Origin: an uncultured Acidobacteriota bacterium
GTDB taxonomy: Bacteria; Acidobacteriota; Thermoanaerobaculia; Multivoradales; JAHEKO01
Direction: 5' to 3'
DNA length: 64,000 nucleotides
NCBI GenBank assembly: GCA_963713825.1
Contig: CAVQNG010000025.1
Coordinates: 892,415 to 956,414, forward strand
The translations under genes were made by a program, and so were the position numbers. The notes under the pieces were generated by a model. That model did not search any database and was not told the origin of the DNA. It worked only from the letters and a program-made list of their open reading frames with translations. This document shows positions 32,759 to 64,000 of this stretch, in pieces (positions within the stretch are counted from its first letter, which is position 1; every line of letters begins with the position of its first letter).

Positions 32759-32776
32759 TTCTTAGAGACGGTCGAG

Positions 32777-33562
32777 ATGAATCCGAGAGAGGGAGCCCAT
32801 CACCAGAGGTCGAGTCCTGGCCCCTGGTGGCTGGCGAAGGGTCTCGAAGAGCTTCCCACCAACCTGGATTGGCTGAGCTCGGAAGAGCACCGACATCTGG
32901 CGAGACTCGGGGTCGAGAAGCGGCGCCACGACTGGCTGCTTGGACGCTGGACTGCCAAATCGGCACTCCTGCAAAGCCCTTACTTTCCGGGCTCCGGCAC
33001 GGCTCCTGAGGAATTGACCGTCTGGCAGGCCGCAGACGGGGCTCCGGAAGCTCTGTTCCGAGGGCGAGCTCTACCGCTGACTCTCTCTATCAGCCATCGA
33101 AGTGGTCGAGGATTGTGTGTTCTGGCCCCCGAGGCGCTGCTTGTCGGCTGTGACCTCGAGACAGTCGAGGCCCGAAGCCCTGCCTTCTTGCAGGACTACT
33201 TCACGTCCGATGAGCAGGCTGCTCTGCGGGCGGCTCCTGCCAACGGCAGAGATCGAATCGCGACACTGTTCTGGGGGGCGAAGGAGAGCGCCCTGAAGGC
33301 ACTGAGGCTAGGGCTGAGAGCCGATACCCGACGGATCCGGGTCGAATTGCCTGCCGAGTCGGGGGCAGACGAGAAATGGTGCAACCTGGTCGTGCGGGAT
33401 AGGGAGTCCGATCGGGGGTTCGGAGGGTGGTTTCGGATGCTGGAAGGGCTGACCTTGGTGGTGGTTTCCTCGCCTCCTTCCGAGGCTCCTGTGTCTCTGG
33501 TAGGAAATTCCAGATCTGGCAGCTGGTCAGAGGGCAGGGGGGGAAAAGGTGGCGACCTCTGA
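32777..33562 (+). CDS. Sfp-type 4'-phosphopantetheinyl transferase
   Basis: WLLGRWTAK, LSISHR, VGCDLE, FWGAKESALKA; immediately downstream of the PKS. Confidence 0.9.
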   Translation: MNPREGAHHQRSSPGPWWLAKGLEELPTNLDWLSSEEHRHLARLGVEKRRHDWLLGRWTAKSALLQSPYFPGSGTAPEELTVWQAADGAPEALFRGRALPLTLSISHRSGRGLCVLAPEALLVGCDLETVEARSPAFLQDYFTSDEQAALRAAPANGRDRIATLFWGAKESALKALRLGLRADTRRIRVELPAESGADEKWCNLVVRDRESDRGFGGWFRMLEGLTLVVVSSPPSEAPVSLVGNSRSGSWSEGRGGKGGDL

Positions 33563-45569: not shown

Positions 45570-46592
45570 TCAGGGCTTGCGGGCGGCCAAGAGGCGGGAC
45601 TTGGTGGCCACATCTACCAGGCTCTCGAATCGAAGACCCAGCTGCGCGAGCCAGGTCTCGACTTGCGCGACCGTGTAGCAGTCGCCACCCTCCGTGCTCA
45701 CCAACATGTTGACGGCAAACACAGCTCCTCCGGGAGGGTTGAGTCGATCCTCGTCGAGCAGAAAGTCCTTGATGACGAGCCGTCCCCCGGGTTCGAGAGC
45801 GGTGGCGCATCGGCCGAGCAGCTGCCGATTGATGGCGGCCGAGTAGATGTGCACGACGTTGGAGAGGAAGATCAGATCGTAGGGGCCTCCCAGGTCGTCC
45901 TCCAGAGCGTTGCCAGCCCGGCAGGTAATGCGTCCTTGGAGCTCGGCCGCGCGAATGTTCCCCTCGGCGACCGCCAACGTGCTCTCGGTATCCAGGACCA
46001 CGACTTCGAGCTCGGGATGGCGTCGGGCGAACTCGATGGCGTAGATAGCGGGTCCACCCCCGATATCCAACATGCGTCGAACGCCCTCGAGATCGAGGAC
46101 CTCACTGGTCGCGGCGGCCGACACCCTGCCGACGTCAGCCATGGCTCGAGCGAACTGCGCCTCGTTGCCGACGAGCGCCGGATCCAGATGCTCATCGGCA
46201 ACTGGCCGCCCATGGACGACTGCATCGTGTAGGTGGCCCCAGCGCTCGTACAGCTTGGCCGTATGTTGAAGGGAGTGAACGCGGGAGGTTGGTGAGCTCG
46301 GCAGTAGGAACTGCTCGACTAGCGGGCCGTTGCCGTAGCCACCGTCCTCTCGTAGAAGGAGGCCTTCGGCCACGAGGGCATCACAGAGGATCCTCACCCC
46401 ACGTTGATCGGCATCGAGCCTGCTGCTCAGTTCTTCGGCGTCAAGGGGTCCTTCGATCAACCTCTCGAACAACCCGAGACGATTGGCGGTCAGCAGGATC
46501 TGGCAGGCTCGATAGCCGGACGCCATCCTGTCGACCGGGTCTGTGAAGTGCTCTCCCGGTGGGTTGGGGTCTTTCGTGGTCATGGGCTTCAA
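45570..46592 (-). CDS. SAM-dependent O-methyltransferase (dimerisation + Methyltransf_2 type)
   Basis: N-terminal winged-helix dimerisation segment; LDIGGGP, SNVVH, PGGRLVI. Confidence 0.88.
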   Translation of the reverse strand: MKPMTTKDPNPPGEHFTDPVDRMASGYRACQILLTANRLGLFERLIEGPLDAEELSSRLDADQRGVRILCDALVAEGLLLREDGGYGNGPLVEQFLLPSSPTSRVHSLQHTAKLYERWGHLHDAVVHGRPVADEHLDPALVGNEAQFARAMADVGRVSAAATSEVLDLEGVRRMLDIGGGPAIYAIEFARRHPELEVVVLDTESTLAVAEGNIRAAELQGRITCRAGNALEDDLGGPYDLIFLSNVVHIYSAAINRQLLGRCATALEPGGRLVIKDFLLDEDRLNPPGGAVFAVNMLVSTEGGDCYTVAQVETWLAQLGLRFESLVDVATKSRLLAARKP

Positions 46593-47221
46593 CTGGTTTC
46601 AGCCAACTTCTCGGCCCGGTTCCGATACAGGTCGGGATCGACGACACTGGCCATTTTCTCGACATCGAGGTGGCCGCCGAGGAACTCGTTGATCGCGCCA
46701 GCGGCCTGCAAGGGCTCGTCGAGGACCTGGCGATAGTGGACCTCGAGATGCTCGAATTGCGGTTGGTGCTTGAGCAGGTAGTTGGCCTTCCAGAGGTCGT
46801 TCTCATAGAGCTCGACCATGCGCTCGTCCTCGGTCTCGGAGGTCTCGTCGCGTCGTTGCAGCATCTTCTGCTGGGACGCCAGGACCTCGCTCAGATCACG
46901 GCGCATGAACAGTACCTTGTAGTTGTAGTCGGGTGGCAGCTCCTTGAGCAGGTACGAGATGATCTTGATGGCCTGCCCTTTGGCGTCGTCGAGCCAACGG
47001 AAATCGTTCTCCTTGGCGAGGTCTTTGACGCGCTCCAATTCGTAGTAGCCCTTGGGATTGTCTTCATCGGCGGAGCGCACCCCGTCCGAAACGATGGAAA
47101 ACCCAGTTGCCTCCAGCATCTTCATGGCCATCGAAGTGCCAGAGCGGGGCAGGCCGGAGACGATGATGACCGGCTCTCCAAACCGCAGTCGTCGGTAGAG
47201 GCTTCTGAGATTGAATGCCAT
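46589..47221 (-). CDS. PAPS-dependent sulfotransferase-domain protein
   Basis: SGLPRSGTS 5'-PSB loop, NPKGYYE, MRRDLSEVLASQ 3'-PB motif. Confidence 0.85.
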   Translation of the reverse strand: MAFNLRSLYRRLRFGEPVIIVSGLPRSGTSMAMKMLEATGFSIVSDGVRSADEDNPKGYYELERVKDLAKENDFRWLDDAKGQAIKIISYLLKELPPDYNYKVLFMRRDLSEVLASQQKMLQRRDETSETEDERMVELYENDLWKANYLLKHQPQFEHLEVHYRQVLDEPLQAAGAINEFLGGHLDVEKMASVVDPDLYRNRAEKLAETS

Positions 47222-47362
47222 GCGGAGTCTTCCTGAATGGTCGGGTAGTGGGTGTTCGGATTCGCGATGTTGTGTATATAATACCAGTCCATTTTGGCGC
47301 CCGGGCTACTGCACAGCGTCGGGGCGCCTTTTTTCGAAACACACTATAGAGCAGGAGAAGGT

Positions 47363-49537
47363 TTGTTGAGCCGCAAGACAACGACGGCATCCAAGAGGTT
47401 CAGCTGGACGACACTCGGGTTGGTGATGTGGCTGGGGCTGGCGATCGTGCCGCCCGCGGCTGCCTACGTAGGCCCTGGTGCCGGTTTCGCTCTGCTGTCC
47501 TCGTTTCTGGTCATCTTCACGACGATTCTGCTGGCCATCGTCGCTTTTCTCGCCTGGCCGTTTCGGATGTTGTGGCGAATGCTGCGCCAGAAGCAGCGGG
47601 CCAGGCCGAACATCAAACGCTTCATCGTGGTCGGACTCGACGGTCAGGACCCGCGATTGACGGATCGCTTCATGGCGGAGGGCAAGCTGCCCAACTTCGA
47701 GCGCCTTGCCAAACAGGGGACCTACTCGAAGCTGCGGACAACCTTTCCCTCGGTTTCACCGGTCGCCTGGTCATCCTTCAGTACCGGGACCTCGCCCGCC
47801 AAGCACAACATCTTCGACTTCCTGGATCGCGACCTGAGAACCTACTTGCCACTGTTGTCGTCGACGCACATCGGCAGCATCGACAAGTTCCTGAAGCTTG
47901 GGAAGTACAAAATCCCCATGCAGAAGCCCGAGCTCCGGCTGCTGCGGAAATCCAAGCCCTTCTGGACCATTCTGGGCGAGCACCGTATCTGGAGCACCGT
48001 GCTGCGAGTGCCGATCACCTTCCCGCCGGACAAGTTCTACGGAGCTCAGCTGAGCGCCATGTGCGTTCCTGACTTGTTGGGTACCCAGGGGACATTTCTC
48101 CTCTTCACGACGCGGCCTCCTGAAGGTGAGTTCAAGGAAGGCGGCATGCGGGTGCCGCTCGAAGGTACCGGAGATCATTTCGAGACCCAGCTCGAGGGGC
48201 CCGAGAACATGTTCCTGCAAGGGGATCCTCCCTTGAGCCTGCCCATGACCCTCGATGTCAATCGAGAGGCCAAGACCGTCAAGCTCAATCTCGCTGGGGA
48301 AGACTACGAGCTCCGTCGTGGCGAGCTCAGCGATTGGATCACCCTGACGTTCAAGGCGGCGCCGGGAATCAAGGTGTCCGGCATCTGCCGGATGCAGATT
48401 ACCGAGATGGAAGAGCATCTGTCGCTCTACATCACGCCTATCAGCCTGGATCCCGAGAATCCGGCCATGCCTGTCTCCCACCCGTCGTACTACTCGACGT
48501 ATCTGGCGAAGAGAATCGGTCCGTATTCGACTCTCGGATTGGCCGAAGATACGTGGGCTTTGAACGAGGAAGTGACCGACGATGCCACGTTTCTCGAGCA
48601 GACGCTGGATATCGACACCGAGCGGGAGAAGATGTTCTTCACCGCCATGGACCGCCTCAAGCAGGGTTCGCTGGTCTGCGTCTGGGATGCAACGGACCGC
48701 ATCCAGCACATGTTCTGGCGCTATATAGAGGAAGGCCATCCGGCCGCCCGTGGCAAGGAAGACGCCAAGCACAGGAATGCGATCGAAGAGCTCTACAAGC
48801 GCAACGACGCGCTGGTGGGTAGGGTCGTCAAGAAACTCAAGAAGGGTGACGTCCTCGTCGTCTGTTCGGATCACGGATTTACCTCCTTTCGGCGGGGTAT
48901 CAACCTCAATAGCTGGCTGCTGGCCAACGGCTACCTGAAGCTCAAGGAGGGCTGCGACGGTGCTTCGGAGTGGCTACGTGAGGTCGATTGGTCCCAGACC
49001 AAGGCCTACGCTCTCGGTCTGACCGGCATGTTCCTGAACCTCGAGGGTCGTGAGAGCGAGGGGATCGTCGCGCCTGGTGAAGAGGCCGAGGCTCTGAAAG
49101 CAGAGCTCATCGAGAAGATCAGCGGCCTCGTGGACGAGGAAAAGGGCGAGGTCGGCATCGTCGAAGTCTTCGACACGCACAAGCTCTACCAGGGGCCTTA
49201 CCTCGGCAACGCACCCGACTTTCTGATCGGCTACAACCATGGCTACCGGACCTCGTGGGATTGCGCCACCGGTGTTGTGGCCGGGCCGGTCTTCGAAGAC
49301 AACACCAAAGCCTGGAGCGGTGACCACTGTGTCGATCCGCGGCTCGTACCCGGTGTGCTGTTCTGCAGTCACAAGATCGACGATGACGACCCGGCGCTGA
49401 TCGACATCGCCCCCACGGCGCTGCAGCTTTTCGGCGTAGGTGTCCCACCGCATATGGAAGGCAAGCCGCTGTTCAGTAGCGAAACGATGTCGAGCGGCAG
49501 GCTCAAGAAGCTCGAATTGGAGCAGTCCGATGTTTAG
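47363..49537 (+). CDS. Alkaline-phosphatase-superfamily (NPP/phosphodiesterase-like) membrane enzyme A
   Basis: AGGAG RBS; signal-like segment, AYVGPGAG, TM; GLDG, TFPSVSPVAW (Ser nucleophile position), DRIQH, SDHG, GDH. Confidence 0.88.
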   Translation: MLSRKTTTASKRFSWTTLGLVMWLGLAIVPPAAAYVGPGAGFALLSSFLVIFTTILLAIVAFLAWPFRMLWRMLRQKQRARPNIKRFIVVGLDGQDPRLTDRFMAEGKLPNFERLAKQGTYSKLRTTFPSVSPVAWSSFSTGTSPAKHNIFDFLDRDLRTYLPLLSSTHIGSIDKFLKLGKYKIPMQKPELRLLRKSKPFWTILGEHRIWSTVLRVPITFPPDKFYGAQLSAMCVPDLLGTQGTFLLFTTRPPEGEFKEGGMRVPLEGTGDHFETQLEGPENMFLQGDPPLSLPMTLDVNREAKTVKLNLAGEDYELRRGELSDWITLTFKAAPGIKVSGICRMQITEMEEHLSLYITPISLDPENPAMPVSHPSYYSTYLAKRIGPYSTLGLAEDTWALNEEVTDDATFLEQTLDIDTEREKMFFTAMDRLKQGSLVCVWDATDRIQHMFWRYIEEGHPAARGKEDAKHRNAIEELYKRNDALVGRVVKKLKKGDVLVVCSDHGFTSFRRGINLNSWLLANGYLKLKEGCDGASEWLREVDWSQTKAYALGLTGMFLNLEGRESEGIVAPGEEAEALKAELIEKISGLVDEEKGEVGIVEVFDTHKLYQGPYLGNAPDFLIGYNHGYRTSWDCATGVVAGPVFEDNTKAWSGDHCVDPRLVPGVLFCSHKIDDDDPALIDIAPTALQLFGVGVPPHMEGKPLFSSETMSSGRLKKLELEQSDV

Positions 49538-51542
49538 GCATTCATCTCGGCGTCTGTCCACAGGTCTCCGCGTCGCTATCGCGATAGGGGTGGTGGCGAG
49601 TGTCGCGTTTCTGGCGAGTGGGATGATCGCCTGCGGCAGCAAGTCCGCCGCCGCCGACTCGGGCAAGAAGGTCATCGTCCTGGGATTCGACGGGTTGGAC
49701 TACGAGTTGACCCAGCGTCTGATGGCTGAAGGCCGAATGCCCAATTTCTCGCGTTTAGCCGATGCCGGAGGCTTCGCGCCGCTGGAGACCTCCGTTCCGC
49801 CGCAAAGCCCGGTCGCCTGGTCGAACTTCATTACCGGCATGGACTCCGGGGGCCACGGGATCTACGATTTCGTCCACCGCGATCCGGAGACGATGCTGCC
49901 GTACCTGTCGACCAGCAAGACGGAAGATGCCGGCAGAGTTCTCGAGGTCGGCAAGTACGAGTTCCCCTTGTCCGGCGGCGAGGTGGAGCTGCTTCGGCAT
50001 GGGACCCCGTTCTGGGAAGTGTTGGAAGACCACGACATCGAGACCACCATTATTCGCATCCCCGCCAACTTCCCGCCTTCGGGCACGGCGACGAGAGAGT
50101 TGAGCGGTATGGGCACGCCCGACCTGCTGGGAACCTCGGGGACCTTCTCTTTCTTCACCTCCGAGCTCTTCGCTTTCCAGGGCGAGGACATCAGCGGCGG
50201 TGAGGTCTACGAGGTCTATCCGTACGACAACACGGTCGAGGCCTCGCTGTTCGGCCCCGACAATCCGTTCCTGCAGGAAAAGGAGAAGATCGAGCTTCCG
50301 TTCACGGTCTATCTGGACGTGGAGGAGGCGGCGGTCAAGCTCGAAGTCGGAGAGACAGAGCTCATCCTGCAGGTCGGCGAGTGGAGCGATTGGGTGCCGA
50401 TCGATTTCGAGCTCATCCCCACGCAGACCGTGCGGGCCATCGTGCGGTTCCATCTCAAGCAGGTGCATCCCGAGCTGGAGCTCTACGCCTCGCCACTGAA
50501 CATCGATCCAGCGCAACCGGTCATGCCGATCTCGACACCGGACGACTACTCGGCCGAACTGGCCGCAGCCACCGGGCGTTTCTACACGCAGGAGATGCCG
50601 GAGGATACGAAAGTTCTGAGCGCTGGTATCTTCTCGCGAGACGAGTTCCTGGAGCAGGCCAGACTGACAGCCGATCAGTTCCTGGAGCAGTACAAGTACG
50701 TCCTGAGTGAGTTTCGTTCGGGGCTGCTGTTCTACTACTTCGGCAACGTCGATCAGACATCGCATATGCTGATGAAGACGCTCGATCCCGGGCACCCGGC
50801 CTACGATTCCGAGGTCGACGCGCCGTTCGCTCACGTCATCGAGGATCTCTACATCGAATTGGATGGCGTCGTCGGTTACACGCTCGACAGTATGCCGGAG
50901 GGGACGAAGCTGATCGTCATGTCCGACCACGGATTCACCAGCTGGCGGCGGTCGTTCAATCTCAATACCTGGTTGATGGAAAACGGCTACGCGGTGCTGA
51001 AGGACCCGAATGTAAGGAAGGATCCGGGCTGGCTGCTCAACGTCGACTGGTCGCAGACCCGGGCCTACGGCCTCGGTCTCAACGGGCTTTATCTCAATCT
51101 GAAGGGCCGGGAGAAGGAAGGCATCGTCGACCCCGCCGACCGCGAAGCCCTGATGAAGGAGATCGCTGACAAGTTACTGGCGACGATGGATCCAGTGACC
51201 GGTGAGCCTGCGGTCACCAAGGTCTACTTCCGAGAAGAGGTCTACAGGGATCGAGGCTATCTAGAGATCGGGCCCGACCTCCAGGTCGGTTACGCCAAGG
51301 GAACCAGGGGGTCCAATGAATCGGCCTCAGGAGAGTTTCCTCCCGAGATCATCGTGGACAACACCGAGGAATGGAACGGCGATCACTGCATGGATCACGA
51401 AGCCGTGCCGGGAATCCTCCTCACCAACGAACCGCTGAGCCGACCGGCACCGAGTCTCAAGGAGCTGGGCGCGTCGATTCTGGCCGAGTTCGGCGTCAAC
51501 GAGGGATTCCCGGTGCTCGAAGCGCCGGCGCCGGCCGGCTGA
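49530..51542 (+). CDS. Alkaline-phosphatase-superfamily enzyme B (paralogue), exported or lipoprotein
   Basis: N-terminal hydrophobic segment ending IAC; GFDG, PPQSPVAW, DQTSH, SDHG, GDH; overlaps enzyme A stop. Confidence 0.88.
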   Translation: MFRHSSRRLSTGLRVAIAIGVVASVAFLASGMIACGSKSAAADSGKKVIVLGFDGLDYELTQRLMAEGRMPNFSRLADAGGFAPLETSVPPQSPVAWSNFITGMDSGGHGIYDFVHRDPETMLPYLSTSKTEDAGRVLEVGKYEFPLSGGEVELLRHGTPFWEVLEDHDIETTIIRIPANFPPSGTATRELSGMGTPDLLGTSGTFSFFTSELFAFQGEDISGGEVYEVYPYDNTVEASLFGPDNPFLQEKEKIELPFTVYLDVEEAAVKLEVGETELILQVGEWSDWVPIDFELIPTQTVRAIVRFHLKQVHPELELYASPLNIDPAQPVMPISTPDDYSAELAAATGRFYTQEMPEDTKVLSAGIFSRDEFLEQARLTADQFLEQYKYVLSEFRSGLLFYYFGNVDQTSHMLMKTLDPGHPAYDSEVDAPFAHVIEDLYIELDGVVGYTLDSMPEGTKLIVMSDHGFTSWRRSFNLNTWLMENGYAVLKDPNVRKDPGWLLNVDWSQTRAYGLGLNGLYLNLKGREKEGIVDPADREALMKEIADKLLATMDPVTGEPAVTKVYFREEVYRDRGYLEIGPDLQVGYAKGTRGSNESASGEFPPEIIVDNTEEWNGDHCMDHEAVPGILLTNEPLSRPAPSLKELGASILAEFGVNEGFPVLEAPAPAG

Positions 51543-51568
51543 AGGCTAAAGAAGTAGATAGGGAGCAC

Positions 51569-51769
51569 ATGACGATGCTGGGAACGACGAAAGTCAAGCT
51601 GGACAAGGATCTGGTGAACAAGGTCAAGCGCTACGCGGACATCGCTGGCTACTCGACGCCGGAAGAGTTCATCACCCACGCTTTGGAGAAGGAGCTGTCG
51701 AAGCTCGAAGGAGCGGACTCCGAAGAAGAGATCAAGAAGCGCCTACGAGGTCTGGGGTATATCTCGTAG
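51569..51769 (+). CDS. Small ribbon-helix-helix (CopG-like) protein with C-terminal EEEIKKRLRGLGY motif
   Basis: AGGGAG RBS; KVKL strand, helix, GYS turn, EEFI..AL helix; LGY tail. Confidence 0.8.
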   Translation: MTMLGTTKVKLDKDLVNKVKRYADIAGYSTPEEFITHALEKELSKLEGADSEEEIKKRLRGLGYIS

Positions 51770-51801
51770 GGGCTCGAGGACTTGCCGAGGCCACTGAAAG
51801 A

Positions 51802-52626
51802 ATGACTGTTCTGAACTCGATACTGCAGACGCTGGTGAACGGGCTGCTGTTCCCCTTTCGGCAATTCCCGATCGGGGCACTGGTCCTGATCTCGATTGTC
51901 ACCGCGGTGGGGATGCTGCTGGTCTTCAAGAAGACCTCCAACCAGACCGCTCTCGAGGCGGTCAAGAAGCGCATCCACGCTTGCCTGTTCGAGATCCGAC
52001 TCTTCAACGACGATTTGGGTGCGATCTTTCGCGCCCAATTCGAGATCTTGAGGACGAACCTGACCTATCTGCGTCTGCAGTTGGTGCCGCTGGTCTTCAT
52101 CTTGCCGCCCATGATCCTGCTGCTGACGCAGCTGCAGCCCCACTATGGGTACCAGGGACTCCACATCGGGGAGCCGGTTCTGGTCAAGGTGAGGGTGGCA
52201 GACTCACTGGCCGGAGAAGGAGCCGCGAAGCCGGCGGTGGACCTCGAAGTGCCGAGTGGGCTGAAATTGGAGACTCCCGCCGTGTGGATACCCTCCCGCG
52301 GTGAGTTGGCCTGGCGAATGGTGGCAGAGGCGGCCGGCGAATACGACCTGACGGTGCACCTGGGCGATGAGAGCTTCGACAAGAGCGTCGAGGTCTCAGA
52401 GGAGTTCTTGAGTCGGTCACCGCTAAGGGCCGTGCCGGGGTTCGTAGATCAGCTGCTCTATCCCGCCGAGAAGCCGCTGCCCAAGGGGGCGTCGGTGAGA
52501 GCCATCGAGCTCGCCTACCCCGAGGATCCCACCTTTCTCTTCATGCCCCGTTGGATGTGGATCTTCTTCGTCTTCACCATCGTCTTCGCCTTCGCCTTGC
52601 GCAAACCGATGAAGGTCACGATCTAA
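51802..52626 (+). CDS. Membrane protein, DUF106/EMC3-TMCO1 (Oxa1-superfamily)-like, with inserted soluble beta domain
   Basis: TM, helical hairpin (TSNQ..L...KK.I), TM with P....PP, soluble domain, final TM W.W.FF......LRK. Confidence 0.55.
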   Translation: MTVLNSILQTLVNGLLFPFRQFPIGALVLISIVTAVGMLLVFKKTSNQTALEAVKKRIHACLFEIRLFNDDLGAIFRAQFEILRTNLTYLRLQLVPLVFILPPMILLLTQLQPHYGYQGLHIGEPVLVKVRVADSLAGEGAAKPAVDLEVPSGLKLETPAVWIPSRGELAWRMVAEAAGEYDLTVHLGDESFDKSVEVSEEFLSRSPLRAVPGFVDQLLYPAEKPLPKGASVRAIELAYPEDPTFLFMPRWMWIFFVFTIVFAFALRKPMKVTI

Positions 52627-55451: not shown

Positions 55452-56018
55452 ATGGCCCCTATCGATGCCAATCAGTGCCGCCCGGGCACGAAGCTACTAC
55501 TCGACGGAGAGCTCTATACAGTTCTCGAACGAGCCCATCACAAGCCTGGTAAGGGAGGCGCCTTCGTGCGTTTCAAGCTCAAGGGAATCGTCACCGGCAA
55601 GGTGGTCGACCACACCGTTCGGGCCGGCTCCAAGATGGAGCGGGCGGACGTGACGACCCAGCCGATGCAGTACCTGTATCAGCAGGGTGACGATTTCGTG
55701 TTCATGGATATGGAGAGCTACGAGCAGGTCACCATCTCCAGCGAACTGATGGGTCTAATGGCGCAGTTCCTGGTCGAGAGCACCGAGGTTCAGGTCACAA
55801 TGTACGAGGGCCAGGCGATTGGCGTCCAATTGCCGCAGAAGATGGAGTTCGAGGTGGTGGATACCATCGACAACGCGGCCAGGGGCAACACGGCAACCGG
55901 TGCCACCAAGGAGGCTACGCTCGAGACCGGCTTCAACCTGCAGGTTCCCATGTTCATCAAGACAGGCGATCGAGTCCGGATCTTGACCGAGGACGGGAGC
56001 TATCTGGAGCGCGCCTAG
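55452..56018 (+). CDS. efp: Translation elongation factor P
   Basis: HKPGKGGAFVR, QYLY, RGNTA, KEATLETG, VPMFI; AAGGAG RBS. Confidence 0.97.
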   Translation: MAPIDANQCRPGTKLLLDGELYTVLERAHHKPGKGGAFVRFKLKGIVTGKVVDHTVRAGSKMERADVTTQPMQYLYQQGDDFVFMDMESYEQVTISSELMGLMAQFLVESTEVQVTMYEGQAIGVQLPQKMEFEVVDTIDNAARGNTATGATKEATLETGFNLQVPMFIKTGDRVRILTEDGSYLERA

Positions 56019-56606
56019 GTGCTGGATACCGCCCGCTACTGGCTGGCGCTGATTCTGGTGGTCTCGTTTCCACCGGCCTTCCTCTACTGGTTTGTCATCC
56101 ACCCCTTTGCAGACTTCTGGCGTCAGCTGGGTCCCCTCAAAACCCATTTGATCGTGGGGCCGGCGATGATTCTGGTGGGTTTCGGGATTTACAGATTCGA
56201 GGCGCCGCTGATGCGAGTCGATTTCGGATTCGTGCCGGCCTTTGCCGTCCTGGCTGTACTGTCCTACGCGTTCGCCGGGATTCTCGAGCTCCTGTGCCGG
56301 CGATACCTCAAGCTCAGGATCCTGGTGGGCGTTCCAGAGCTGAGTGATGATCCTTCGGCTGGAGGTCTTTTGACTGAGGGCATCTACGGGCGCATACGCC
56401 ACCCCCGCTATGTCAGCGTCTTCTTCGGCGGCCTCGCTGTTGCCCTCTTCTCGAACTACCTGGCCACCTGGGTGCTGCAGATCCTGCTGATACCGATCAT
56501 CTACCTGCTCGCCATCATCGAGGAGCGCGAGCTTCGCGAGCGATTCGGCGAAGAGTACGAGCGCTATATGGAGAGGGTGCCGAGGTTCGTGCCGCGATTC
56601 AGTTGA
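56019..56606 (+). CDS. Isoprenylcysteine carboxyl methyltransferase / PEMT family membrane protein
   Basis: TM helices, GIY..IRHPRY, EERELRERFGEEY..Y...VPRF. Confidence 0.85.
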   Translation: MLDTARYWLALILVVSFPPAFLYWFVIHPFADFWRQLGPLKTHLIVGPAMILVGFGIYRFEAPLMRVDFGFVPAFAVLAVLSYAFAGILELLCRRYLKLRILVGVPELSDDPSAGGLLTEGIYGRIRHPRYVSVFFGGLAVALFSNYLATWVLQILLIPIIYLLAIIEERELRERFGEEYERYMERVPRFVPRFS

Positions 56607-56934
56607 GGACGGACCAAATCCAAGGGGAAACCGCACCGCAATTGGCAGGCATTCTAATCGCTCCGGTTCTCTGGCTACTTCAGGCTGGTGGGCAGATGTA
56701 GATCGGAATCGAGTGGTCCGGTCAGCCCGTATATGATGGATGCCTAGGACCTAGCCGCTGAACTTTTGAGCGATCCGGTATTTTCTGGGGATGTTTGATT
56801 TTGGGTTCCATAAGCATGTACAGAGGACCAACTGACACCTGCCCTCTCGACTGTTCAGGCACTCCTCGCGGTGGTCCCCTTACGAGTCGATCCATCCAAC
56901 GAGGACTACCGAGTCGCAGAGTCTGGAAGTAGCA

Positions 56935-57936
56935 ATGGGGCCGAAGAACGACACAGAGGCTATTCTGATGAACGAGGCTATCTCCCCTCGGATATCGGTG
57001 GTGATTCCAGCGCACAACGAAGCTGCTTCGCTGAGCGAGACCCTGAAAAGGACCTTACAAGTCCTGTCATCAAACTCCATCGCAGCCGAAGTCTTGGTAG
57101 TCGACGACGGTTCGACTGATAGTACCTGGGATCTAATTCAAGACTTTTCTCGCCGAGATCAGCGAGTGAGTGGCATCTCCTTCAGTCGGAACTTCGGAAA
57201 AGAGAGAGCAATCTGTGCTGGTCTGGAATCCGCTACCGGTCAAGCGGTTGTCGTGATGGATGCAGATTTGCAACACCCACCCAGAATCATTCCCGAACTC
57301 ATCGAGAAGTGGTCTGAAGGGTTCCACGTTGTTGATGGAGTAAAACGCTCCCGAGGGAAGGAGACCTGGATCAGTACCAAGCTTGCGAAGGCCTTCTATG
57401 GTCTTTTTGCTTTGGCTGCTGGAATCGACCTTGAAGGACAAAGTGATTTCAAGCTTCTCGACCGAAAGGCAGTCGAGCAGTGGAATCGAATGCCTGAGCG
57501 GACAGTCTTCTTTCGTGGTATGTCTTCTTGGCTGGGTTTCAGAAGATCAAGCGTAGAGTTCGATGTCGAGGATCGCGTAGCCGGTTCGAGCACGTGGTCG
57601 CGAGCCAATTTGGCAAGATTGGCGCTGTCTGCCATCACTTCGTTTTCTTCCATTCCTCTTCGACTGGTGACCTTTACAGGGTTACTGTTCTTCGTATTTG
57701 CGGTCGTCTTAGGGATTCAAACGGTCTACAGGTGGGCGATCGGCGAAGCATTTACAGGATTCCCGACGGTCATCCTTCTTATCCTGATTACCTCGAGTCT
57801 GGTCATGCTGGCACTAGGAATCATCGGAGAGTACCTGGCAAAGATCTACGATGAAATCAAGGGACGTCCTAGATTCGTGATAGAGGATCGCTGCGGTTTT
57901 GATGGGTGGAGTCCGCCTGCGAGAAAACTGCAATGA
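56935..57936 (+). CDS. GT2 polyprenol-phosphate glycosyltransferase (GtrB/ArnC-like)
   Basis: VIPAHNE, VDDGSTD, SRNFGK, MDADLQHPP, two C-terminal TMs, GEY...IY.E.KGRP. Confidence 0.92.
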   Translation: MGPKNDTEAILMNEAISPRISVVIPAHNEAASLSETLKRTLQVLSSNSIAAEVLVVDDGSTDSTWDLIQDFSRRDQRVSGISFSRNFGKERAICAGLESATGQAVVVMDADLQHPPRIIPELIEKWSEGFHVVDGVKRSRGKETWISTKLAKAFYGLFALAAGIDLEGQSDFKLLDRKAVEQWNRMPERTVFFRGMSSWLGFRRSSVEFDVEDRVAGSSTWSRANLARLALSAITSFSSIPLRLVTFTGLLFFVFAVVLGIQTVYRWAIGEAFTGFPTVILLILITSSLVMLALGIIGEYLAKIYDEIKGRPRFVIEDRCGFDGWSPPARKLQ

Positions 57937-59447
57937 AGTTTGTTCCCCGCTTGATTGCACACGAAAAGGTGCGGCCCCAAGGTGTCCTGCTAGTCGTTCT
58001 TCTGGGGACGCTGCTGAGTGCTGGTCTCGTGTTCCTGGTCGATTTCCCGCCCGTTCAGGATTTTCCGAACCACCTCCTACGCCAACACATCATCGAGAAT
58101 ATGGACGTCAGGCCGTATTCTGATTACATTGCCCTTGATCCATCATTCCGGCCCAACATGACCTCAGACATAATTCTGGGTGCTCTCAGGAGAGTTCTGG
58201 ACCTGGACTCGGCGGGCAAGGTGTTGTTGAGTCTGGAGTTGTTGGTCATCAATTTAGGGGCGGCCCTTTTCCTCAGGCGGTTTGGTGCCAGCCTCGCGGG
58301 TGCCTTCCTTGCTGTTCACTTGAGTGCTAGCTGGGTGTTTCTGAAGGGTCTCATGAACTTTGGGTTTGGCGTGGGCTTCGGATTGGCGTGGTTGTCCATA
58401 CTCTGGGGGCAGGATCGCATCTCATTTCCGCGGTGGGTGGTCGCGGCAGGGCTCGGTGTGGCCACGGTCGTGAGTCATGGATTTGTCTTCCTGGCCTCCT
58501 TGTTCCTGATCTTCGCAGGCCTTTTGACCGAGGGGAAGTACTTGTCGAGACGGGCGTTGATGAGCATGCTTTCAGCGCTACCGGGGACCGCGATCTTTGT
58601 CCTGTTTATTCTGAACATCAGGGAGAGCTCGCAGCTCGGTGCGAACAGATTCATCTACGCGGCGAATCTTGAGCATCTGTTCGTCTGGAACCCACTCGGT
58701 ATCTGGGCAAGAGTGAGCGGCAGTCTCGATGAGATGCTCGCGGTGATCGCCTGGGCACTCCTATTCGCTGCTTGTGTTCTTACCGGGCGAAGAGCCCTTC
58801 AATTGAGGAGGGCTGGAAGAGACAGTCTCATGGTGACTGTCTGGGGATTCGTATTGGGCTCCATCTGTCTATACCTGTTGCTTCCAGGCAGGCTGTCTGG
58901 AGGCTGGGGTCTTATGAAAGTCCGAATCTGCCTGATTCTGTTCTTCGTCAGCTTGCCGTTGTTGTCTTTTTTGACGGTGAGGCTCAGAGGTATTGCTGCC
59001 GTCGTTGCATTCGGGGTGTGGGCCTTGGGATTCGGTCTCAGTTTTGTGGACTACCGCGACTTCAGCCACAATGTGTCGGCCTACATGGAAGTAGCTGACA
59101 AACTGCCCAGAGAGGGCGTGGTGCTATCACTCAATCTCATGGCCCCAGGCAGGACCTTGAACCCGTATCAGCATATCTGGGGCTACGCTTGCATCAGGAA
59201 GGACTGTCTTTCTCAGGAACTGTTTGCTGACGAGTACATACAACAGATCTACTTTGACCGGCCCCTGCTGGGAAGAAAGAAAGTTGTTCCCCCGTATGAA
59301 CCGTCTTCCATCTCCGAGGCTTTGGAAGGCGGTCAATACGATGCGGTACTGATAGCTGGTGAAGCGCCTAGCTCGCTCCTGGAGCCTACTCAACTGTGGC
59401 AGGTGGCGGCGACCAATAAGAGCGGCACGTTGATGGTGCCCAAATGA
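57933..59447 (+). CDS. GT-C-like polytopic membrane protein
   Basis: P.QDFPNH in first loop, GLMNF, multiple TMs, soluble C-terminus; ATGA overlap with the GT2 gene. Confidence 0.7.
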   Translation: MKFVPRLIAHEKVRPQGVLLVVLLGTLLSAGLVFLVDFPPVQDFPNHLLRQHIIENMDVRPYSDYIALDPSFRPNMTSDIILGALRRVLDLDSAGKVLLSLELLVINLGAALFLRRFGASLAGAFLAVHLSASWVFLKGLMNFGFGVGFGLAWLSILWGQDRISFPRWVVAAGLGVATVVSHGFVFLASLFLIFAGLLTEGKYLSRRALMSMLSALPGTAIFVLFILNIRESSQLGANRFIYAANLEHLFVWNPLGIWARVSGSLDEMLAVIAWALLFAACVLTGRRALQLRRAGRDSLMVTVWGFVLGSICLYLLLPGRLSGGWGLMKVRICLILFFVSLPLLSFLTVRLRGIAAVVAFGVWALGFGLSFVDYRDFSHNVSAYMEVADKLPREGVVLSLNLMAPGRTLNPYQHIWGYACIRKDCLSQELFADEYIQQIYFDRPLLGRKKVVPPYEPSSISEALEGGQYDAVLIAGEAPSSLLEPTQLWQVAATNKSGTLMVPK

Positions 59448-59682
59448 GACTATGGGCTACCAGCTGTGCCCTATTACAGTTGCTAGGAGCTTCCGGCTCG
59501 ACCTTCAATGCCTCGTCGCCAAGGTCTTCCGGTTGATTTCCCAGCGGAGCCTCCCTTTCGAACTCCTCCAGAAGGCACTATCTAGGGCTTCTTCCTCTTG
59601 AACCCACCTCCCGATCTCTATGGCAAGCTAGGCGTGATGGGGAGGTGAGGTCGCGTTCGGGACCAGATCTCTGGAGGACAAA

Positions 59683-61360
59683 ATGAGAACTCATGCTCGA
59701 ATAGCTCAACGAGGTTCTAGTGACCGAGTCCTGTCGCTCTGGCTGCTCGCTATGGTACTACTGCACCTTCTACTCGATCTGGCTCTTCGAGCACTTCCCG
59801 ACTCAGGATGGGCCCATTCACCTTTCCAATGCGAGAGTCTTCCTCGAATACGACAATCCAGCATGTTCCGTACTGCCTGAGTACTACCAGCTGAAGTCCG
59901 GTGTTGGCCCGAACTGGTTCTCTCTTCTGTCTTTGGCGGGCCTGCTCAAGCTTTTCTCTCCTGAGATAGCAGAAAAGGTGTTTCTAAGCGCCTATGTTCT
60001 TGCTCTCGTAGGCTCAGCCTACTTCGCGATTCTGGGAATCAGCAGGAGGAACAGATTTCTACTGCTTCTCGTGTTTCCCTTCGTCTTCAATTACTTCGTC
60101 TTCCTCGGCTTCTACAACTTCATCTTCGGTCTACCATTTGTCTTCTTGTTTCTCGGAATAGTCCTCAGGTCAGGTTCCAGGCTCGGGTGGCGGGAGGCTG
60201 GTCTCCTGGCCCTGGCGTCTGTGCTGGCCTTCTTCATCCACCCCTTGACGATGCTTGCGGCCTGGTTCATGGCCCTGCCTCCCTTGGCTGCGAAGGTCAT
60301 CCTCACCCATCCAGAGGCTGGGGAGACCGGGAAAGTACCATCAGGCCGATTAATCAACTCCTTGCTCCGGCGGGCAATACCCATCGGGATGGCTGCATTG
60401 CCCAGCGCTGGTCTCTTCCTGCATTACTGGCTGACACATTCCGGCTCTTCGGCAGTACGCCAATCTCTCCTTAGACTGGCGCGCAACGCAGTCGGCCTGG
60501 GCTCCATCATCACTCACTCTCGGTGGGAGGTTTTGCCGTCGCTGGTTCTCTCTGGAAGTTTTCTCGTGATTGGAGTCAGTGTCCTTCGGAGAGGTGCGCT
60601 GAAGGGCAAGCGGGCTTCGGCGGTTGGCCTACTGATAGCCGTTATTGCAATGTTCGCGCTCTACTTCGTAGCGCCCAACTCAGCCGGAGGCGGCAACTGG
60701 ATCAACGCTCGTTTGTTGCTCTACCCTTTCTTGACGACGGTGTTGTGGTTTGCATGCTACCGGTTCAGCCGACGTGAGAGAGGGGGCATTATCGTCGTCG
60801 CTTCGTTGGTAACGCTTGTTCTCCTTGGATTCCATCTTCGGAGCGTATCTAGCCTCAGCGCAGAAATCGAGCAGAGCCTAGCCTGTGGCGCAGATGTTCC
60901 GGCAAACGCTACAGTGCTCCCAGTCAGTCTGTCGCGTCGGGGTCGGGATGAGACGGGTGCTCCAATTTCGTGGAAGGCGGCATCCTTCGGTCATTTCGCA
61001 GGGTATGTGGCGGCCGACCGGTGCTTGGTTCAGTTCGACAACTACGCTGCATGGAAAGGGTACTTCCCGGTTTCCTGGCGGTCGGAGTTGAGTCCCAGAG
61101 AGGGCCGCCTATGGCCAGATGGTCCTGAGGGTGATCGTCCGGCAGTGAACATTCGGAAGTACGAGGAGCTTACAGGTGGGCGAGTCGACTATGTTCTCCT
61201 GCGAGACTTGCGCCCGGAGGATCTCCAGAATCAAGAAGTAGTAGACCTCCTGGATCAACTGGGCAGGGGCTTCGAGGAGGTCTGCCGCGATGGTCTGCTT
61301 GGCGAAACCTATCTTTACCGGAGAAACGATCCGGGCACTGAAAGAGCGTTGCAAGATTGA
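59683..61360 (+). CDS. GT-C-like polytopic membrane protein, paralogue of the previous gene (frameshift at ~59775)
   Basis: GGAGG RBS and ATG 59683; first TM joins IWLFEHFPTQDGPIH after a one-base shift; GFYNF; multiple TMs. Confidence 0.7.
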
Positions 61361-61469
61361 AGCCTAAGAGCTTGTTGAAAAACCCGTCATCGCGCACGAT
61401 TGGGGACATGCTGTCCCTTGACACCTGTTAACCTGACCAACGATCACGGGTCTTGAGAGGTATTCACTC

Positions 61470-63397
61470 ATGTCGAGAGAATCATTTGGAATTCTGATAT
61501 TGCGTGTTCTTGCTGTCGGATTCCTGGCTGGAGCCCTCGTGAGTGCGGTTGCGTCTTGCTCGTTGTTTTGGTTGGTGGACTTCTCCAGTCACCTGGGGGA
61601 TCTCTTCGTTCTGAGCCTCTATGCCGTTGTGCACTTCGGGGCTGTGGGTGCTGTTATAGCAGGAGCCCTTGGCCTTCTCTTCTGGTGGCTTTCAAAGTCT
61701 GAGCTGGTTTCTCTTGCCCCTCAGGGATTCTTGAATGGACTGCTGGTGTTCTGTCTTGGTCAAGCAGCCTTGCTCGTGTTTGGTGTTTGGAACCTGGTCA
61801 GGCAGCGACCCACCTACCTGACAGCACTCCCTGTCGTGCTGCCGATTCTGCTCGGTTTTTGTTTTGTCTTGTGGCTCTCCGCAAGAGCCTCTCGGTCCTC
61901 TTCTCGAGGGGAGTCGAGGCGAGTTCCGGCCTTGTACCGCCCTCGGATCGTACTTGCAGTGCTCCTTACGACTCTTGTGGTGCCGCCAATCTTCGGCTTT
62001 TTGAGCTTTGATAGATCGACTGCGGGTGACAGAGAGACGACAGTGGGGAGTGCAGTGAGCCCTGTTGAGATTTCGAATCGGCCTCGGCTTCTGGTGGTCG
62101 GCTGGGATGCCGCAACCTGGGATGTTCTGGATCCCCTCCTCGCACAGGGTCGCCTTCCCAATCTCGCGGGGCTCATTGAGCAGGGGAGCCGCGTGACTCT
62201 GTGGGCCAGACCTCAGGTTCTTCAGCCTTTCACCGACTCGGCGAGCGGTGGTGCAAGGTCGCCGGCATTGTGGGAGTCCATCGCTACTGGGAAGTCTCCA
62301 CGCCAACATGGTATCTGGGACTTCAGGATCAAGCGCTTCTGGGGTGTGAAGCAACCGGTTCCTTTTCGCTTGGCGGGAGAGTACCTTGGCGAAACAGCTG
62401 CAAGAAGTAGTGCATTGGCCCGAGCAAAGCGCTTCTGGTCCATTCTGGACGACGCTGGATTGAAGACAGCGACTGTGGGTTGGTTGACTACTTGGCCGGC
62501 GTGCTCGATGGAGCGCGGGATTATCGTCAGCGATCGAGCGGCCTACGGGCAAGAGGATGCAGGCTACCCGAGGGACTGTATCGACTCCGATCCCTTGTGG
62601 ATGGCTGCGAAAGAGGAGCGGCGTCGGCTCCTGGAAGGGCTCTCTCCGGAGCTTCAGGAAGTCATCGCTAGAGCATGGAGTCAGGCAGCAAGACTGAAGA
62701 AAACAAGAGGATAATGGCCTATCTACATGACTTGGAAGTAGACATCTTCAAGTACCTGGCAGCCAAGAGCTTACTTGCTGCCGAAAGCCCGCCGGATCTT
62801 GTGGCAATCGTGTTCAAGGTCACGGATCTTGTTCAGCACAAGTTCTGGGGTTTCTTCGATCCTCAGTCCTTCGGCCTTGATTCGACCCCGGAGTCGGAAG
62901 TGATGGGGCAGGTGATCCCAGGTACCTACGAGCAACTCGACGTCCTTTTGGGGGATTCGTTGGAAACCTCGGGTCCGGAGACCTCGGTTATCGTGCTGTC
63001 TGACCATGGTGCCGGCCCATGGGTATCCGGTGGGATCGCCGGTTTCGTGAAGAAGTTCATTCAGAGGTCGTTCCATCCAGACTACTCTGGGAATCATCGG
63101 TTCAGCGGGATGGCAAGCTTCAGTGGTCCAAAGTTCCGCCCGGGTGACGTCGTGCTGGATGCCTGGGGAGAGGATATCGCTCCGACGATCCTGCACTACT
63201 TTGGACTTCCCGTGGCTGATGACATGACCGGGAGGGCTCTGGTCAGTGTTTTTGATGACAGCGTTCGTGACGACAGGCAGAGTGCGACGGTTTCTTCCTA
63301 TGGGCCACCTCCAGAATTGGTCGATCCAGAGTCCAGCGGATCTGAGACTGACGAAGAGATATTGGAGAGATTGAAGAGTCTTGGTTACGTCCAGTAA
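61470..63397 (+). CDS. Multi-TM alkaline-phosphatase/sulfatase-superfamily enzyme (frameshift near 62640-62705)
   Basis: About 5 TMs; GWDAATW, SPALWESIATG; then in a second frame DLVQH, SDHG, GNH, DIAPTIL, ERLKSLGYVQ. Confidence 0.78.
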
Positions 63398-63522
63398 CTA
63401 TAAGATCTTGAGGGCTCGAGGTTCGCCCAGCAGTCCGGGTTGTGTCACTGGGAGTTGGCCTTGATCGACACCAGAAGATGCAGATTGCCTCGATCCCGCA
63501 GTCGAAGGCTGAGAGATTAAGA

Positions 63523-64000
63523 ATGACGGAAGACACAGGTTCGCAGCGATTGAGGTTGTTGAGGTTGGCTCTTGGAACGAGCCTTCTGTGGAGTCTCCTT
63601 GTTGGTGTTGGGGTCTTCGTTTCGATCACTCTCTAGGTTTATGTAATGACGCCTCCTATTTCGTGGGGCCGTAGCAATCGTAATTGCTCTGCGTCAGCGC
63701 ACAGCTATCTGCGCTGCTGATGGTCTCTTCGGCCCTGATCGTCGGAGTATTGCTTAGAAGTTGGCCTTGAGAGCTCTCGGGGGAGTGCGACTGAAATTGA
63801 GAAAAATAAATACCAGCTGGCCTAGCGGTGCCCCCATTTACGATTGTCGTGCCCATGCTGTTGCTGGGAGTGAACGTTATTCTCTTGCGCTATCGATACT
63901 CCCCGATAAGCATTTTGACCGATACGGCCATTGTTCTGGCAAGTGCGTTCGTCTTCGTGATGGTCGTCAGATGGCTTTCGACGAAGGAGTTGGACTTTGT
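63523..64000 (+). pseudogene. Fragmented N-terminus of another polytopic membrane protein (error-rich or degenerate), runs off the window
   Basis: Hydrophobic coding-like segments broken by stops; start resembles the neighbouring island genes. Confidence 0.3.

Follow-up and report, generated by a model that had tools for sequence, protein, structure and literature searches.

Characterised nucleotide pyrophosphatases/phosphodiesterases (NPPs) are secreted or ecto-enzymes, and we know of none that occurs as paired enzymes on the two faces of a membrane with a constant set of partner genes. LtaS, EptA/MCR-1 and OpgB, which also belong to the alkaline phosphatase superfamily, are periplasmic transferases that use a Ser or Thr nucleophile to move a phospho-substituent from a membrane lipid to an envelope acceptor. 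These enzymes are of the sulfatase type (PF00884), carry a five-helix N-terminal membrane domain, act outside the cytoplasm only and need no partner of the DUF106 or ribbon-helix-helix (RHH) type. Here, we describe a locus of six genes in a stretch of 64,000 nucleotides (the window) from an uncultured Acidobacteriota bacterium (GenBank assembly GCA_963713825.1, contig CAVQNG010000025.1). Its plus strand encodes two paralogous NPP-type enzymes, A and B, a small RHH-like protein and a membrane protein of the DUF106 type (MEM), and its minus strand encodes a sulfotransferase (ST) of the 3'-phosphoadenosine 5'-phosphosulfate (PAPS) type and an O-methyltransferase (OMT). DUF106 proteins form a branch of the Oxa1 superfamily and are treated as archaeal and eukaryotic in the available portions of two accounts (PMC5868721; bioRxiv 10.1101/2020.12.20.422553).

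Our tentative reading, which we regard as a good possibility but short of a probable one, is that A, B, the small protein and MEM form a widespread, undescribed inner-membrane module, in which A and B share the same chemistry and which is linked to sulfation. All features named in an earlier reading of the bare letters (the sequence-only reading) were found in the sequence, and the six genes were confirmed with refined starts. These features exceed what is expected by chance, since they recur in every orthologue examined and the genes are kept together across phyla. Each part belongs to a known superfamily, and the combination is new as far as could be found in the literature, where searches (supplements aside) returned no description of a system of this composition. 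This agrees with the earlier statement that no described pathway has this make-up.

The linkage of the genes was surveyed in two ways. Among 79 loci collected with A, the order ST (minus strand), A, B, RHH gene, MEM was found in 46, and 10 more lacked B alone; most of the remaining loci were cut by contig ends. A second survey based on MEM, which removes the bias of searching with A, added 78 new loci. The RHH gene was located directly upstream of MEM in all 76 of these with sufficient room. A or B also preceded MEM in 71 of 71; 63 of 65 had the two enzymes together, and 50 of 65 had ST. A, the RHH gene and MEM were never separated in the loci examined, and the core genes are kept together in other genomes, as the sequence-only reading had supposed for its gene set. 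In metagenome-assembled genomes of Myxococcota, Binatota and similar bacteria, ST is co-directional and follows MEM (21 of the 31 loci with room), while the ten loci without ST at this position are labelled Planctomycetota/Phycisphaerales or Aminicenantes, plus one Eubacteriales. Two independent gene orders thus connect the PAPS-type ST with the module, and the survival of this linkage through rearrangement is good evidence of a shared function.

More than 7,700 relatives of A are detectable, many of them with at least 70% identity across phyla and all under generic names. The module is carried by Acidobacteriota, Gemmatimonadota, Myxococcota, Planctomycetota and Aminicenantes, mostly uncultured bacteria of sediment and soil; the record titles of the collected loci all start with 'MAG'. 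Several loci (L075, L077, L167, L177, L178, L194, L204) are titled Alphaproteobacteria, Acidimicrobiia, Gammaproteobacteria, Klebsiella or Enterobacteriaceae; their module sequences group with Vicinamibacterales- or Myxococcota-like loci, and the bins are probably mislabelled or contaminated. Near-identical DNA was detected in sediment, salt-marsh and marine-sediment metagenomes, with 18 runs containing at least half of the sampled words, and all 20 runs with near-identical DNA came from 13 studies. In one marine-sediment RNA library, eight contigs of 223–409 nt showed 92–98% identity to parts of A, B and MEM. This is at most a hint that the module is transcribed, as DNA carry-over is possible, and stretches without contigs carry no information.

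At the N-terminus of A in the window, a leader reading ...AIVPPAAA is followed by YVGPGAG, a 26-residue uncharged helix and the basic cluster RMLWRMLRQKQRAR. Of the 79 loci fetched with A, 71 had the N-terminus inside the locus together with the motif and were used for the topology analysis; eight (L009, L020, L021, L027, L032, L042, L044, L071) were left out of the count because they were cut or the motif was absent in frame. All 71 orthologues showed a variable hydrophobic leader ending in [A/V/L]-x-A/G and then Y[IV]GPG[AP]G, and in all 71 exactly 26 uncharged residues were followed by at least five Lys or Arg in the next 20 positions. The same arrangement was present in all 44 readable N-termini from 46 further loci of distant phyla. 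The mean column identity is 0.34 in the leader, 0.94 in YVGPGAG and 0.67 in the anchor helix, and the AlphaFold2 model of A contains a helix at residues 38–75. An unconserved leader, with conservation rising abruptly behind an AxA site, resembles a cleaved signal peptide, and the leader of A is probably cleaved before Tyr35, which would place the invariant YxGPGAG as the mature N-terminus on the periplasmic side. Since the basic cluster follows the helix, the positive-inside rule predicts that the catalytic domain of A is located in the cytoplasm, held at the membrane by one helix, whether or not the leader is cleaved.

B appears to be exported instead. We applied a strict lipobox rule (at least eight uncharged residues and then a Cys, not more than 35 residues from the first catalytic strand), which 53 of the 61 readable N-termini of B satisfied. 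A further seven had a hydrophobic leader, mostly with a Cys recognisable by eye, and the last one failed solely because a His breaks the leader before the Cys. In distant phyla, an export leader was found in 26 of 26 B proteins through the Sec, Tat or lipoprotein routes, with Tat-type RR leaders in Aminicenantes and plain Sec leaders among other loci. That different export routes lead to the same destination suggests that the periplasmic location of B is itself under selection. B is thus predicted to be an exported paralogue of A, and usually a lipoprotein. The proposal that the two enzymes lie on opposite faces of the membrane has accordingly held up under these sequence rules, and a placement of both catalytic domains on the same side was not found. 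A third full-length paralogue is present in the source genome (G000:C1:125828-127738; L091 8826-10925, minus strand); it has a Tat-type RRRFLQ leader and a lipobox (LTSC), stands without an RHH gene or MEM and is divergent from a PF00884 sulfatase.

Both enzymes match PF01663 with nearly the same score (109.8 bits for A and 110.9 bits for B, cut-off 23), with an insert dividing either match into two parts. As the sequence-only reading had stated, the Ser nucleophile position (SPVAW) and the metal ligands (D / D..H / DH / DH) are kept in both. Among 34 sequences of A, all keep D93, D445, H449, D503 and H504, 33 have D654 and H655, and the nucleophile column contains Ser in 27 and Thr in 7; the ligand role of each residue is assigned by analogy with the NPP site. 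The same metal-ligand residues are invariant in B. Across 68 sequences of A and 38 of B, the two enzymes share 78 invariant residues, among them all metal ligands as well as R156, R195, W201, R215, R343, Y356 and E395; many of the shared residues lie outside the core motifs. We read these shared invariants as a sign of the same chemistry on both faces. Positions that are invariant in one enzyme alone number 138 in A and 25 in B, and the extra constraints on A probably stem from contacts with partners.

A search of the PDB with the single sequence of A returned zero matches. The profile of the A family reached sulfatase, PhnA, NPP, ENPP1 and iPGM at E values of about 1e-4. The fold comparison was made for A alone of the two enzymes, using an AlphaFold2 model (pLDDT 75.7) that is poor at residues 221–242 and 367–387. 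The core of the model is most similar to ENPP5 (Z 27.7, root-mean-square deviation 4.1, 342 aligned residues), Xanthomonas NPP (Z 27.3) and PhnA (Z 25.3), and the range of Z 27.7–24.3 over about 335–365 residues also takes in ENPP4, ENPP7, ENPP6, ENPP1/3 and autotaxin. Several of these structural neighbours cleave lipid head-group diesters, judging from their PDB titles. A beta-rich insert of about 200 residues (approximately residues 216–430) lies outside the NPP alignments. Both the sequence and the model therefore class A as a putative bimetallo enzyme of the NPP-type phosphodiesterase fold.

MEM was compared with known membrane proteins through a profile of 43 orthologues, which gave a single match among all PDB sequences, namely MJ0480 (5c8j) at an E value of 2e-10. 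The match spans residues 7–121 of the query, with transmembrane helix (TM) 1, the coiled coil and TM2, and residues 249–274 with TM3. This bears out the DUF106-like membrane protein noticed in the letters. The AlphaFold2 model (pLDDT 94.6) contains helices at 23–45, 48–67 and 72–115, a beta domain at 125–237 and a helix at 250–267, in the order N-terminal helix, TM1, helical hairpin, TM2, beta domain and TM3. Matches to the whole membrane core were obtained solely with chain 8 of 7tut (Z 8.4, 132 aligned residues), an entry of the multipass translocon whose chain 8 we take to be TMCO1, and with YidC (3wo7; Z 7.9, 147 aligned residues); the other structural matches cover the coiled coil alone. 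Foldseek with the MEM model returned matches solely to the beta domain, which were Ig-like (S-layer, filamin; best E value 1.6e-3). PF01956 matched 5 of the 43 orthologues weakly (best E value 3e-4) and not the MEM of the window; a precomputed PF01956 match is listed for 2 of 120 MEM relatives, and many relatives are named 'DUF106 family' by JGI. The charges (7 Lys/Arg and 5 Asp/Glu in the coil, 12 Lys/Arg and 21 Asp/Glu in the beta domain) agree with a placement of the coil in the cytoplasm and of the beta domain, about 130 residues between TM2 and TM3, in the periplasm. MEM is accordingly predicted to belong to the DUF106 branch of the Oxa1 superfamily, as a bacterial representative that carries an additional beta domain on the periplasmic side. 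Of 301 genomes of the phylum that were sampled, 88 contain MEM, in single copy, and families have it either throughout or not at all; this tally includes the source genome of the window and a genome flagged as unpublished (G049). Since MEM is locked to one operon and found in only this share of the sampled genomes, it is not a housekeeping insertase.

The family of MEM raises the alternative, somewhat unlikely in our view, that it is a dedicated insertase or chaperone for the N-out anchor of A, and that A and B are ordinary, independent phosphodiesterases which recover phosphate or break down diesters in the cytoplasm and the periplasm, with no exchange between the two. The topology predicted for A, in which a single helix comes after a short N-terminal tail in the periplasm, is the type of substrate described for this insertase superfamily in the available part of one account (PMC5868721). 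Moreover, B is dispensable in some loci, and the B-like paralogue with a Tat signal and a lipobox stands alone in the source genome, beside a sulfatase. However, the general insertase YidC would be expected to suffice for A, and it would be uncommon for a single protein to have an insertase of its own. Nor would a dedicated insertase account for the extra domain that MEM carries in the periplasm, the invariant YxGPGAG on the same side, the small protein with its tail or the repeated linkage to ST and PAPS synthesis, and the conservation of A (60–75% identity across phyla) is unusual for a scavenging hydrolase.

The small protein is predicted to consist of an N-terminal strand-helix-helix region, an acidic linker and a tail reading ...RLxGLGYIS. 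Its alignment has a mean column identity of 72%, with L57, G59, L60, G61 and Y62 invariant. The protein of the window matched PF07704 at an E value of 0.044 (15.1 bits, cut-off 28.3), and the orthologues matched PF07704 in 21 of 31 cases (best E value 1.7e-4) and PF01402 in 10 of 31 (best 2.5e-5); FitA-like matches in 3 of 31 and a TacA-like match in 1 of 31 were all weak. The sole RHH match of the profile in the PDB was NikR at an E value of 0.37, and in a protein-family atlas the family is automatically named CopG, with the nearest cluster carrying PF01402 at a score of 0.86. These matches point weakly to an RHH fold. The best PDB match of the small protein profile is uL13, and the relatives of MEM are ribosome-binding insertases; the resemblance of the tail to the C-terminus of yeast-type uL13 (4v91 chain O, ...QLAALGYMS, E value 0.0029) is probably due to chance.

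Longer proteins bearing the small-protein domain were also searched, and most of the 71 matches were artefacts. In one cluster of 15 proteins, all members consist of a complete A fused in frame to the small protein, and these come from several sources with at least two sequence variants. Three metagenome loci (100, 90 and 72% identity) contain the fusion as one open reading frame (ORF) with leader, YVGPGAG, helix, catalytic domain, variable linker and RHH tail; MEM follows 29–146 nt downstream, and B is absent. The joining of the small protein to the cytoplasmic C-terminus of A suggests that it acts on or with A in the cytoplasm, and A is its probable target. The fusion is hard to reconcile with the small protein being no more than a free repressor. 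Five other candidate fusions (P0248, P0254, P0255, P0269, P0283) were out-of-frame junk, and those running from a B-like C-terminus into RHH were 5'-truncated singletons. Among 173 genome loci, B and RHH share one open frame in L066 alone, which is itself frameshifted; 31 long upstream open frames were misleading, since G+C-rich frames stay open by chance.

The weak matches to RHH antitoxin families (PF07704, FitA-like and TacA-like) would fit a scheme in which A is a harmful cytoplasmic nucleotide pyrophosphatase, the RHH-like protein its inhibitor and the repressor of the operon, in the manner of RHH antitoxins that block their partner with a C-terminal tail, and MEM and B accessories. The strand-helix-helix region with its invariant C-terminal tail, the fusion to A in one lineage and a conservation of the small protein as high as that of A point in the same direction. 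We consider this scheme very unlikely, as PADLOC returned zero matches for ST, A, B, the small protein and MEM, and the fusion would anchor the repressor to the membrane, which is an awkward arrangement. In addition, 40 non-redundant ST-A intergenic regions contained no shared operator-like word, only G+C-rich words slightly above mononucleotide shuffles, and the module is chromosomal, present in single copy and strictly associated with MEM, unlike mobile toxin-antitoxin pairs. A type II toxin-antitoxin pair was rejected for the lack of a PADLOC match and because the gene of the small protein stands beside those of an NPP-type enzyme and a DUF106 protein.

ST of the window matched PF13469 with 40.3 bits (cut-off 27), and the SGLPRSGTS loop is invariant in 57 ST orthologues and in an alignment of 33 ST sequences, as are R108, S116 and Q117 in ST. 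The PAPS-type sulfotransferase of the sequence-only reading is thereby confirmed at the level of family and motif, with the conserved motifs presumably being PAPS loops, as judged from the general features of such loops and from an alignment with TPST2. No PDB match was obtained with the single ST sequence, and the closest solved relatives found with the profile were TPST2 and TPST1 (E value 5e-4), in the P-loop only. This relationship prompts the idea, which we regard as a lead only, that tyrosines kept invariant in the module proteins might be substrates of ST. OMT matched PF00891 (82.9 bits, cut-off 22.3) and the dimerisation domain PF08100 (47.6 bits, cut-off 25.6). It was found beside the module in only 2 of 79 loci of the A-based survey and 3 of 78 of the MEM-based survey, and its earlier inclusion in the conserved set had to be dropped; OMT appears to be a lineage-specific add-on downstream of ST.

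The link to sulfation could also mean, much as the sequence-only reading had it, that A and/or B act on adenosine 5'-phosphosulfate (APS), PAPS, 3'-phosphoadenosine 5'-phosphate or a sulfate ester, in a membrane-spanning delivery or removal of sulfate on envelope molecules. Besides the two gene orders with ST, a bifunctional ATP sulfurylase/APS kinase (PAPS synthase) gene lies near the module in six loci. The best PDB sequence match of the A profile is sulfatase S1_8A (E value 6.9e-5) with Ser132 aligned to the sulfatase Cys, and nucleotide diesters and anhydrides are cleaved by NPP enzymes, going by PDB titles. However, PAPS and APS are cytoplasmic, so that the periplasmic B, with the same pocket residues, would have no such substrate, and a canonical PAPS transferase is already part of the module. 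Roughly one quarter to one third of the loci lack ST at the module, and the APS-kinase gene of the source genome lies on another contig than the module. Taken together, this role in sulfate transfer seems distinctly unlikely.

In the reading that we favour, A and B would act on a single substrate embedded in the membrane, either the head group of a lipid or an intermediate linked to a lipid. Both would apply the same kind of phospho- or sulfo-ester chemistry to it, A at the inner and B at the outer leaflet. MEM would hold the unusually conserved anchor helix of A, and its hydrophilic groove might let the polar head of the substrate cross the bilayer. In the available portion of one account, members of the superfamily from archaea and eukaryotes pair with a partner helix bundle via one face of H5 (bioRxiv 10.1101/2020.12.20.422553). 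Lipid scrambling by insertases of the Oxa1 superfamily has been reported, as far as the accessible part of the source goes (PMC11047089), and the proposed passage of a lipid head group through the groove of MEM is derived from this report. The small protein would dimerise or regulate A through its RHH fold and invariant tail, and ST would modify this substrate as well, from the cytoplasm. Overall, the module would serve the modification or turnover of a component of the envelope or membrane, tied to sulfation.

Several points weigh against this reading. The sequence analysis pointed to no substrate, donor or acceptor, the topology follows from sequence rules, and both the contact between A and MEM and the target of the RHH tail are hypothetical. 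The Z scores of about 8 between MEM and Oxa1 members lie in a range common for helical models, so that the assignment of MEM rests mainly on the sequence profile. The model of A is moderate (pLDDT 75.7), and its beta-rich insert contains two low-confidence stretches. Moreover, ST was not nearby in 15 of 65 loci of the MEM-based survey and in 10 of 31 loci of the other phyla, and B is missing from about a tenth of loci, so that neither ST nor B is obligatory. The trans-envelope group-transfer relay proposed in the sequence-only reading, its sulfate or phospho-substituent substrate included, is likewise no more than an inference.

A more specific version of the favoured reading, which we judge unlikely, joins A, MEM and B into one trans-membrane machine. 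In this machine, a DUF106/EMC3-type protein would have been repurposed from protein insertion to the passage of lipid heads, A would be regulated by the subunit with the RHH tail and work with the PAPS-type ST, and B would act outside. If true, it would represent a novel way of making or reshaping envelope molecules that bear sulfate or phospho-substituents, and the first dedicated, non-housekeeping use of the Oxa1 superfamily in bacteria. Should the module act on lipids or envelope glycans in concert with sulfation, this would bring to light unknown envelope chemistry in abundant, mostly uncultured bacteria. A bacterial DUF106 member bears on the evolution of the Oxa1 superfamily and on other uses of the hydrophilic groove, and the fusion of A with the RHH-like protein gives a concrete prediction of binding partners.

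The features of the locus are listed in Table 1. The frame of A is open from 47294 to 49537, and the likely start is the TTG at 47363, which is preceded by GGAGAAGG. The ATG of B and the stop codon of A overlap by 8 bp. Since homologues of the small protein begin with MFG or MLG, its start was set at 51575. The ORF of OMT begins in overlap with the stop codon of ST. The sequence-only reading had described ST and OMT as a pair transcribed divergently from the two enzymes; both do lie on the minus strand, but the order it gave did not hold, as ST adjoins A and OMT lies beyond.

Table 1. Genes and selected features of the locus (positions refer to the window)
Feature	Positions	Strand	Description
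O-methyltransferase (OMT)	45570..46592	-	340-aa ORF from TTG, ATG at codon 4; PF00891, PF08100
Sulfotransferase (ST)	46589..47221	-	210 aa, putative PAPS type; PF13469; divergent from A
Enzyme A	47363..49537	+	724 aa, predicted membrane-anchored NPP-type enzyme of the alkaline phosphatase superfamily; PF01663
A residues 1-34	47363..47464	+	basic N-region and hydrophobic leader ending in PAAA
A residues 35-87	47465..47623	+	YVGPGAG, 26-residue uncharged helix, basic cluster RMLWRMLRQKQRAR
A Ser132 codon	47756..47758	+	SPVAW, nucleophile position; from the alignment column
Enzyme B	49530..51542	+	670 aa, predicted exported lipoprotein paralogue of A; PF01663
B Cys35 codon	49632..49634	+	leader ...LASGMIAC
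Small RHH-like protein	51575..51769	+	64 aa, acidic linker, C-terminal tail ...RLxGLGYIS
MEM	51802..52626	+	274 aa, predicted three-helix membrane protein of the DUF106/Oxa1 superfamily, downstream of the RHH gene

Neither the small protein nor MEM of the locus had a Pfam match above the cut-off, and an NCBIfam scan of the locus proteins gave nothing specific beyond Pfam. A consensus scan of the locus found no promoter-like site and two terminator-like sites, with 4.6 expected, an Rfam scan returned zero matches, and no meaningful inverted repeat was present upstream of A. The 3' end of MEM overlaps that of a convergent ORF for a 944-aa Ser/Thr kinase by about 200 nt (52423-52626), and the same overlap was observed in two close relatives (L013, L014).

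Extra lipoproteins of 700–850 aa are encoded near the module in L063, L064, L070, L075 and L077 and in the Gemmatimonadota loci L007, L008, L010, L011, L016 and L047. Some of them contain a sulfatase-type domain, in which Thr replaces the sulfatase Cys (…PITRPSH…), and tetratricopeptide (TPR) repeats, and they are lineage-specific. A cluster of sulfatase/TPR neighbours (33 members, 21 loci) was rejected as a part of the module, being heterogeneous and lineage-specific.

Elsewhere in the window, positions 24703-33562 encode a 2673-aa multidomain synthase (KS, AT, ACP, KR, DH) of the polyunsaturated-fatty-acid-synthase or polyketide-synthase type, about 12 kb upstream of the ST/OMT pair, and a 4'-phosphopantetheinyl transferase follows it. 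From 56000 to 64000, the G+C content falls from about 0.62 to 0.55, and this stretch contains a GT2 glycosyltransferase (56935-57936) and two ORFs without a Pfam match. Of two overlapping ORFs, 61470-62714 encodes the N-terminal half of a further PF01663 enzyme and 62675-63397 its C-terminal half; they may be a frameshifted or split gene.

Compared with described sulfotransferases (TPST1/2 and SULTs), the PAPS loop of ST is like that of TPST2 (GLPRSGTS in ST, GVPRSGTT in TPST2). However, ST has only 210 aa and its likeness to the TPSTs is confined to the loop. Unlike typical TPST sites, the invariant Tyr35 of A and Tyr26 and Tyr62 of the small protein do not lie in acidic contexts. MEM has the three-helix core and cytoplasmic coiled coil of MJ0480/Ylp1, EMC3, TMCO1, GET1 and YidC, but differs from MJ0480, EMC3, TMCO1 and GET1 in being bacterial and in carrying the Ig-like beta domain of about 130 residues between TM2 and TM3.

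A has the core fold and PF01663 in common with the NPPs (Xanthomonas NPP, 2gsn/7mw8, and ENPP1-7) and PhnA, and the same six metal-ligand positions and the Ser/Thr nucleophile position are found in both A and B, although the sequence similarity is marginal even at the best profile match. Unlike the solved NPP structures, A and B contain the beta-rich insert, and unlike the characterised NPPs, A is predicted to face the cytoplasm on a conserved anchor. With regard to LtaS, EptA and OpgB, A and B are of the NPP type (PF01663) rather than the sulfatase type, and are predicted to be anchored by one helix or by a lipid, while the kind of job performed by these transferases resembles the one that we propose for the module.

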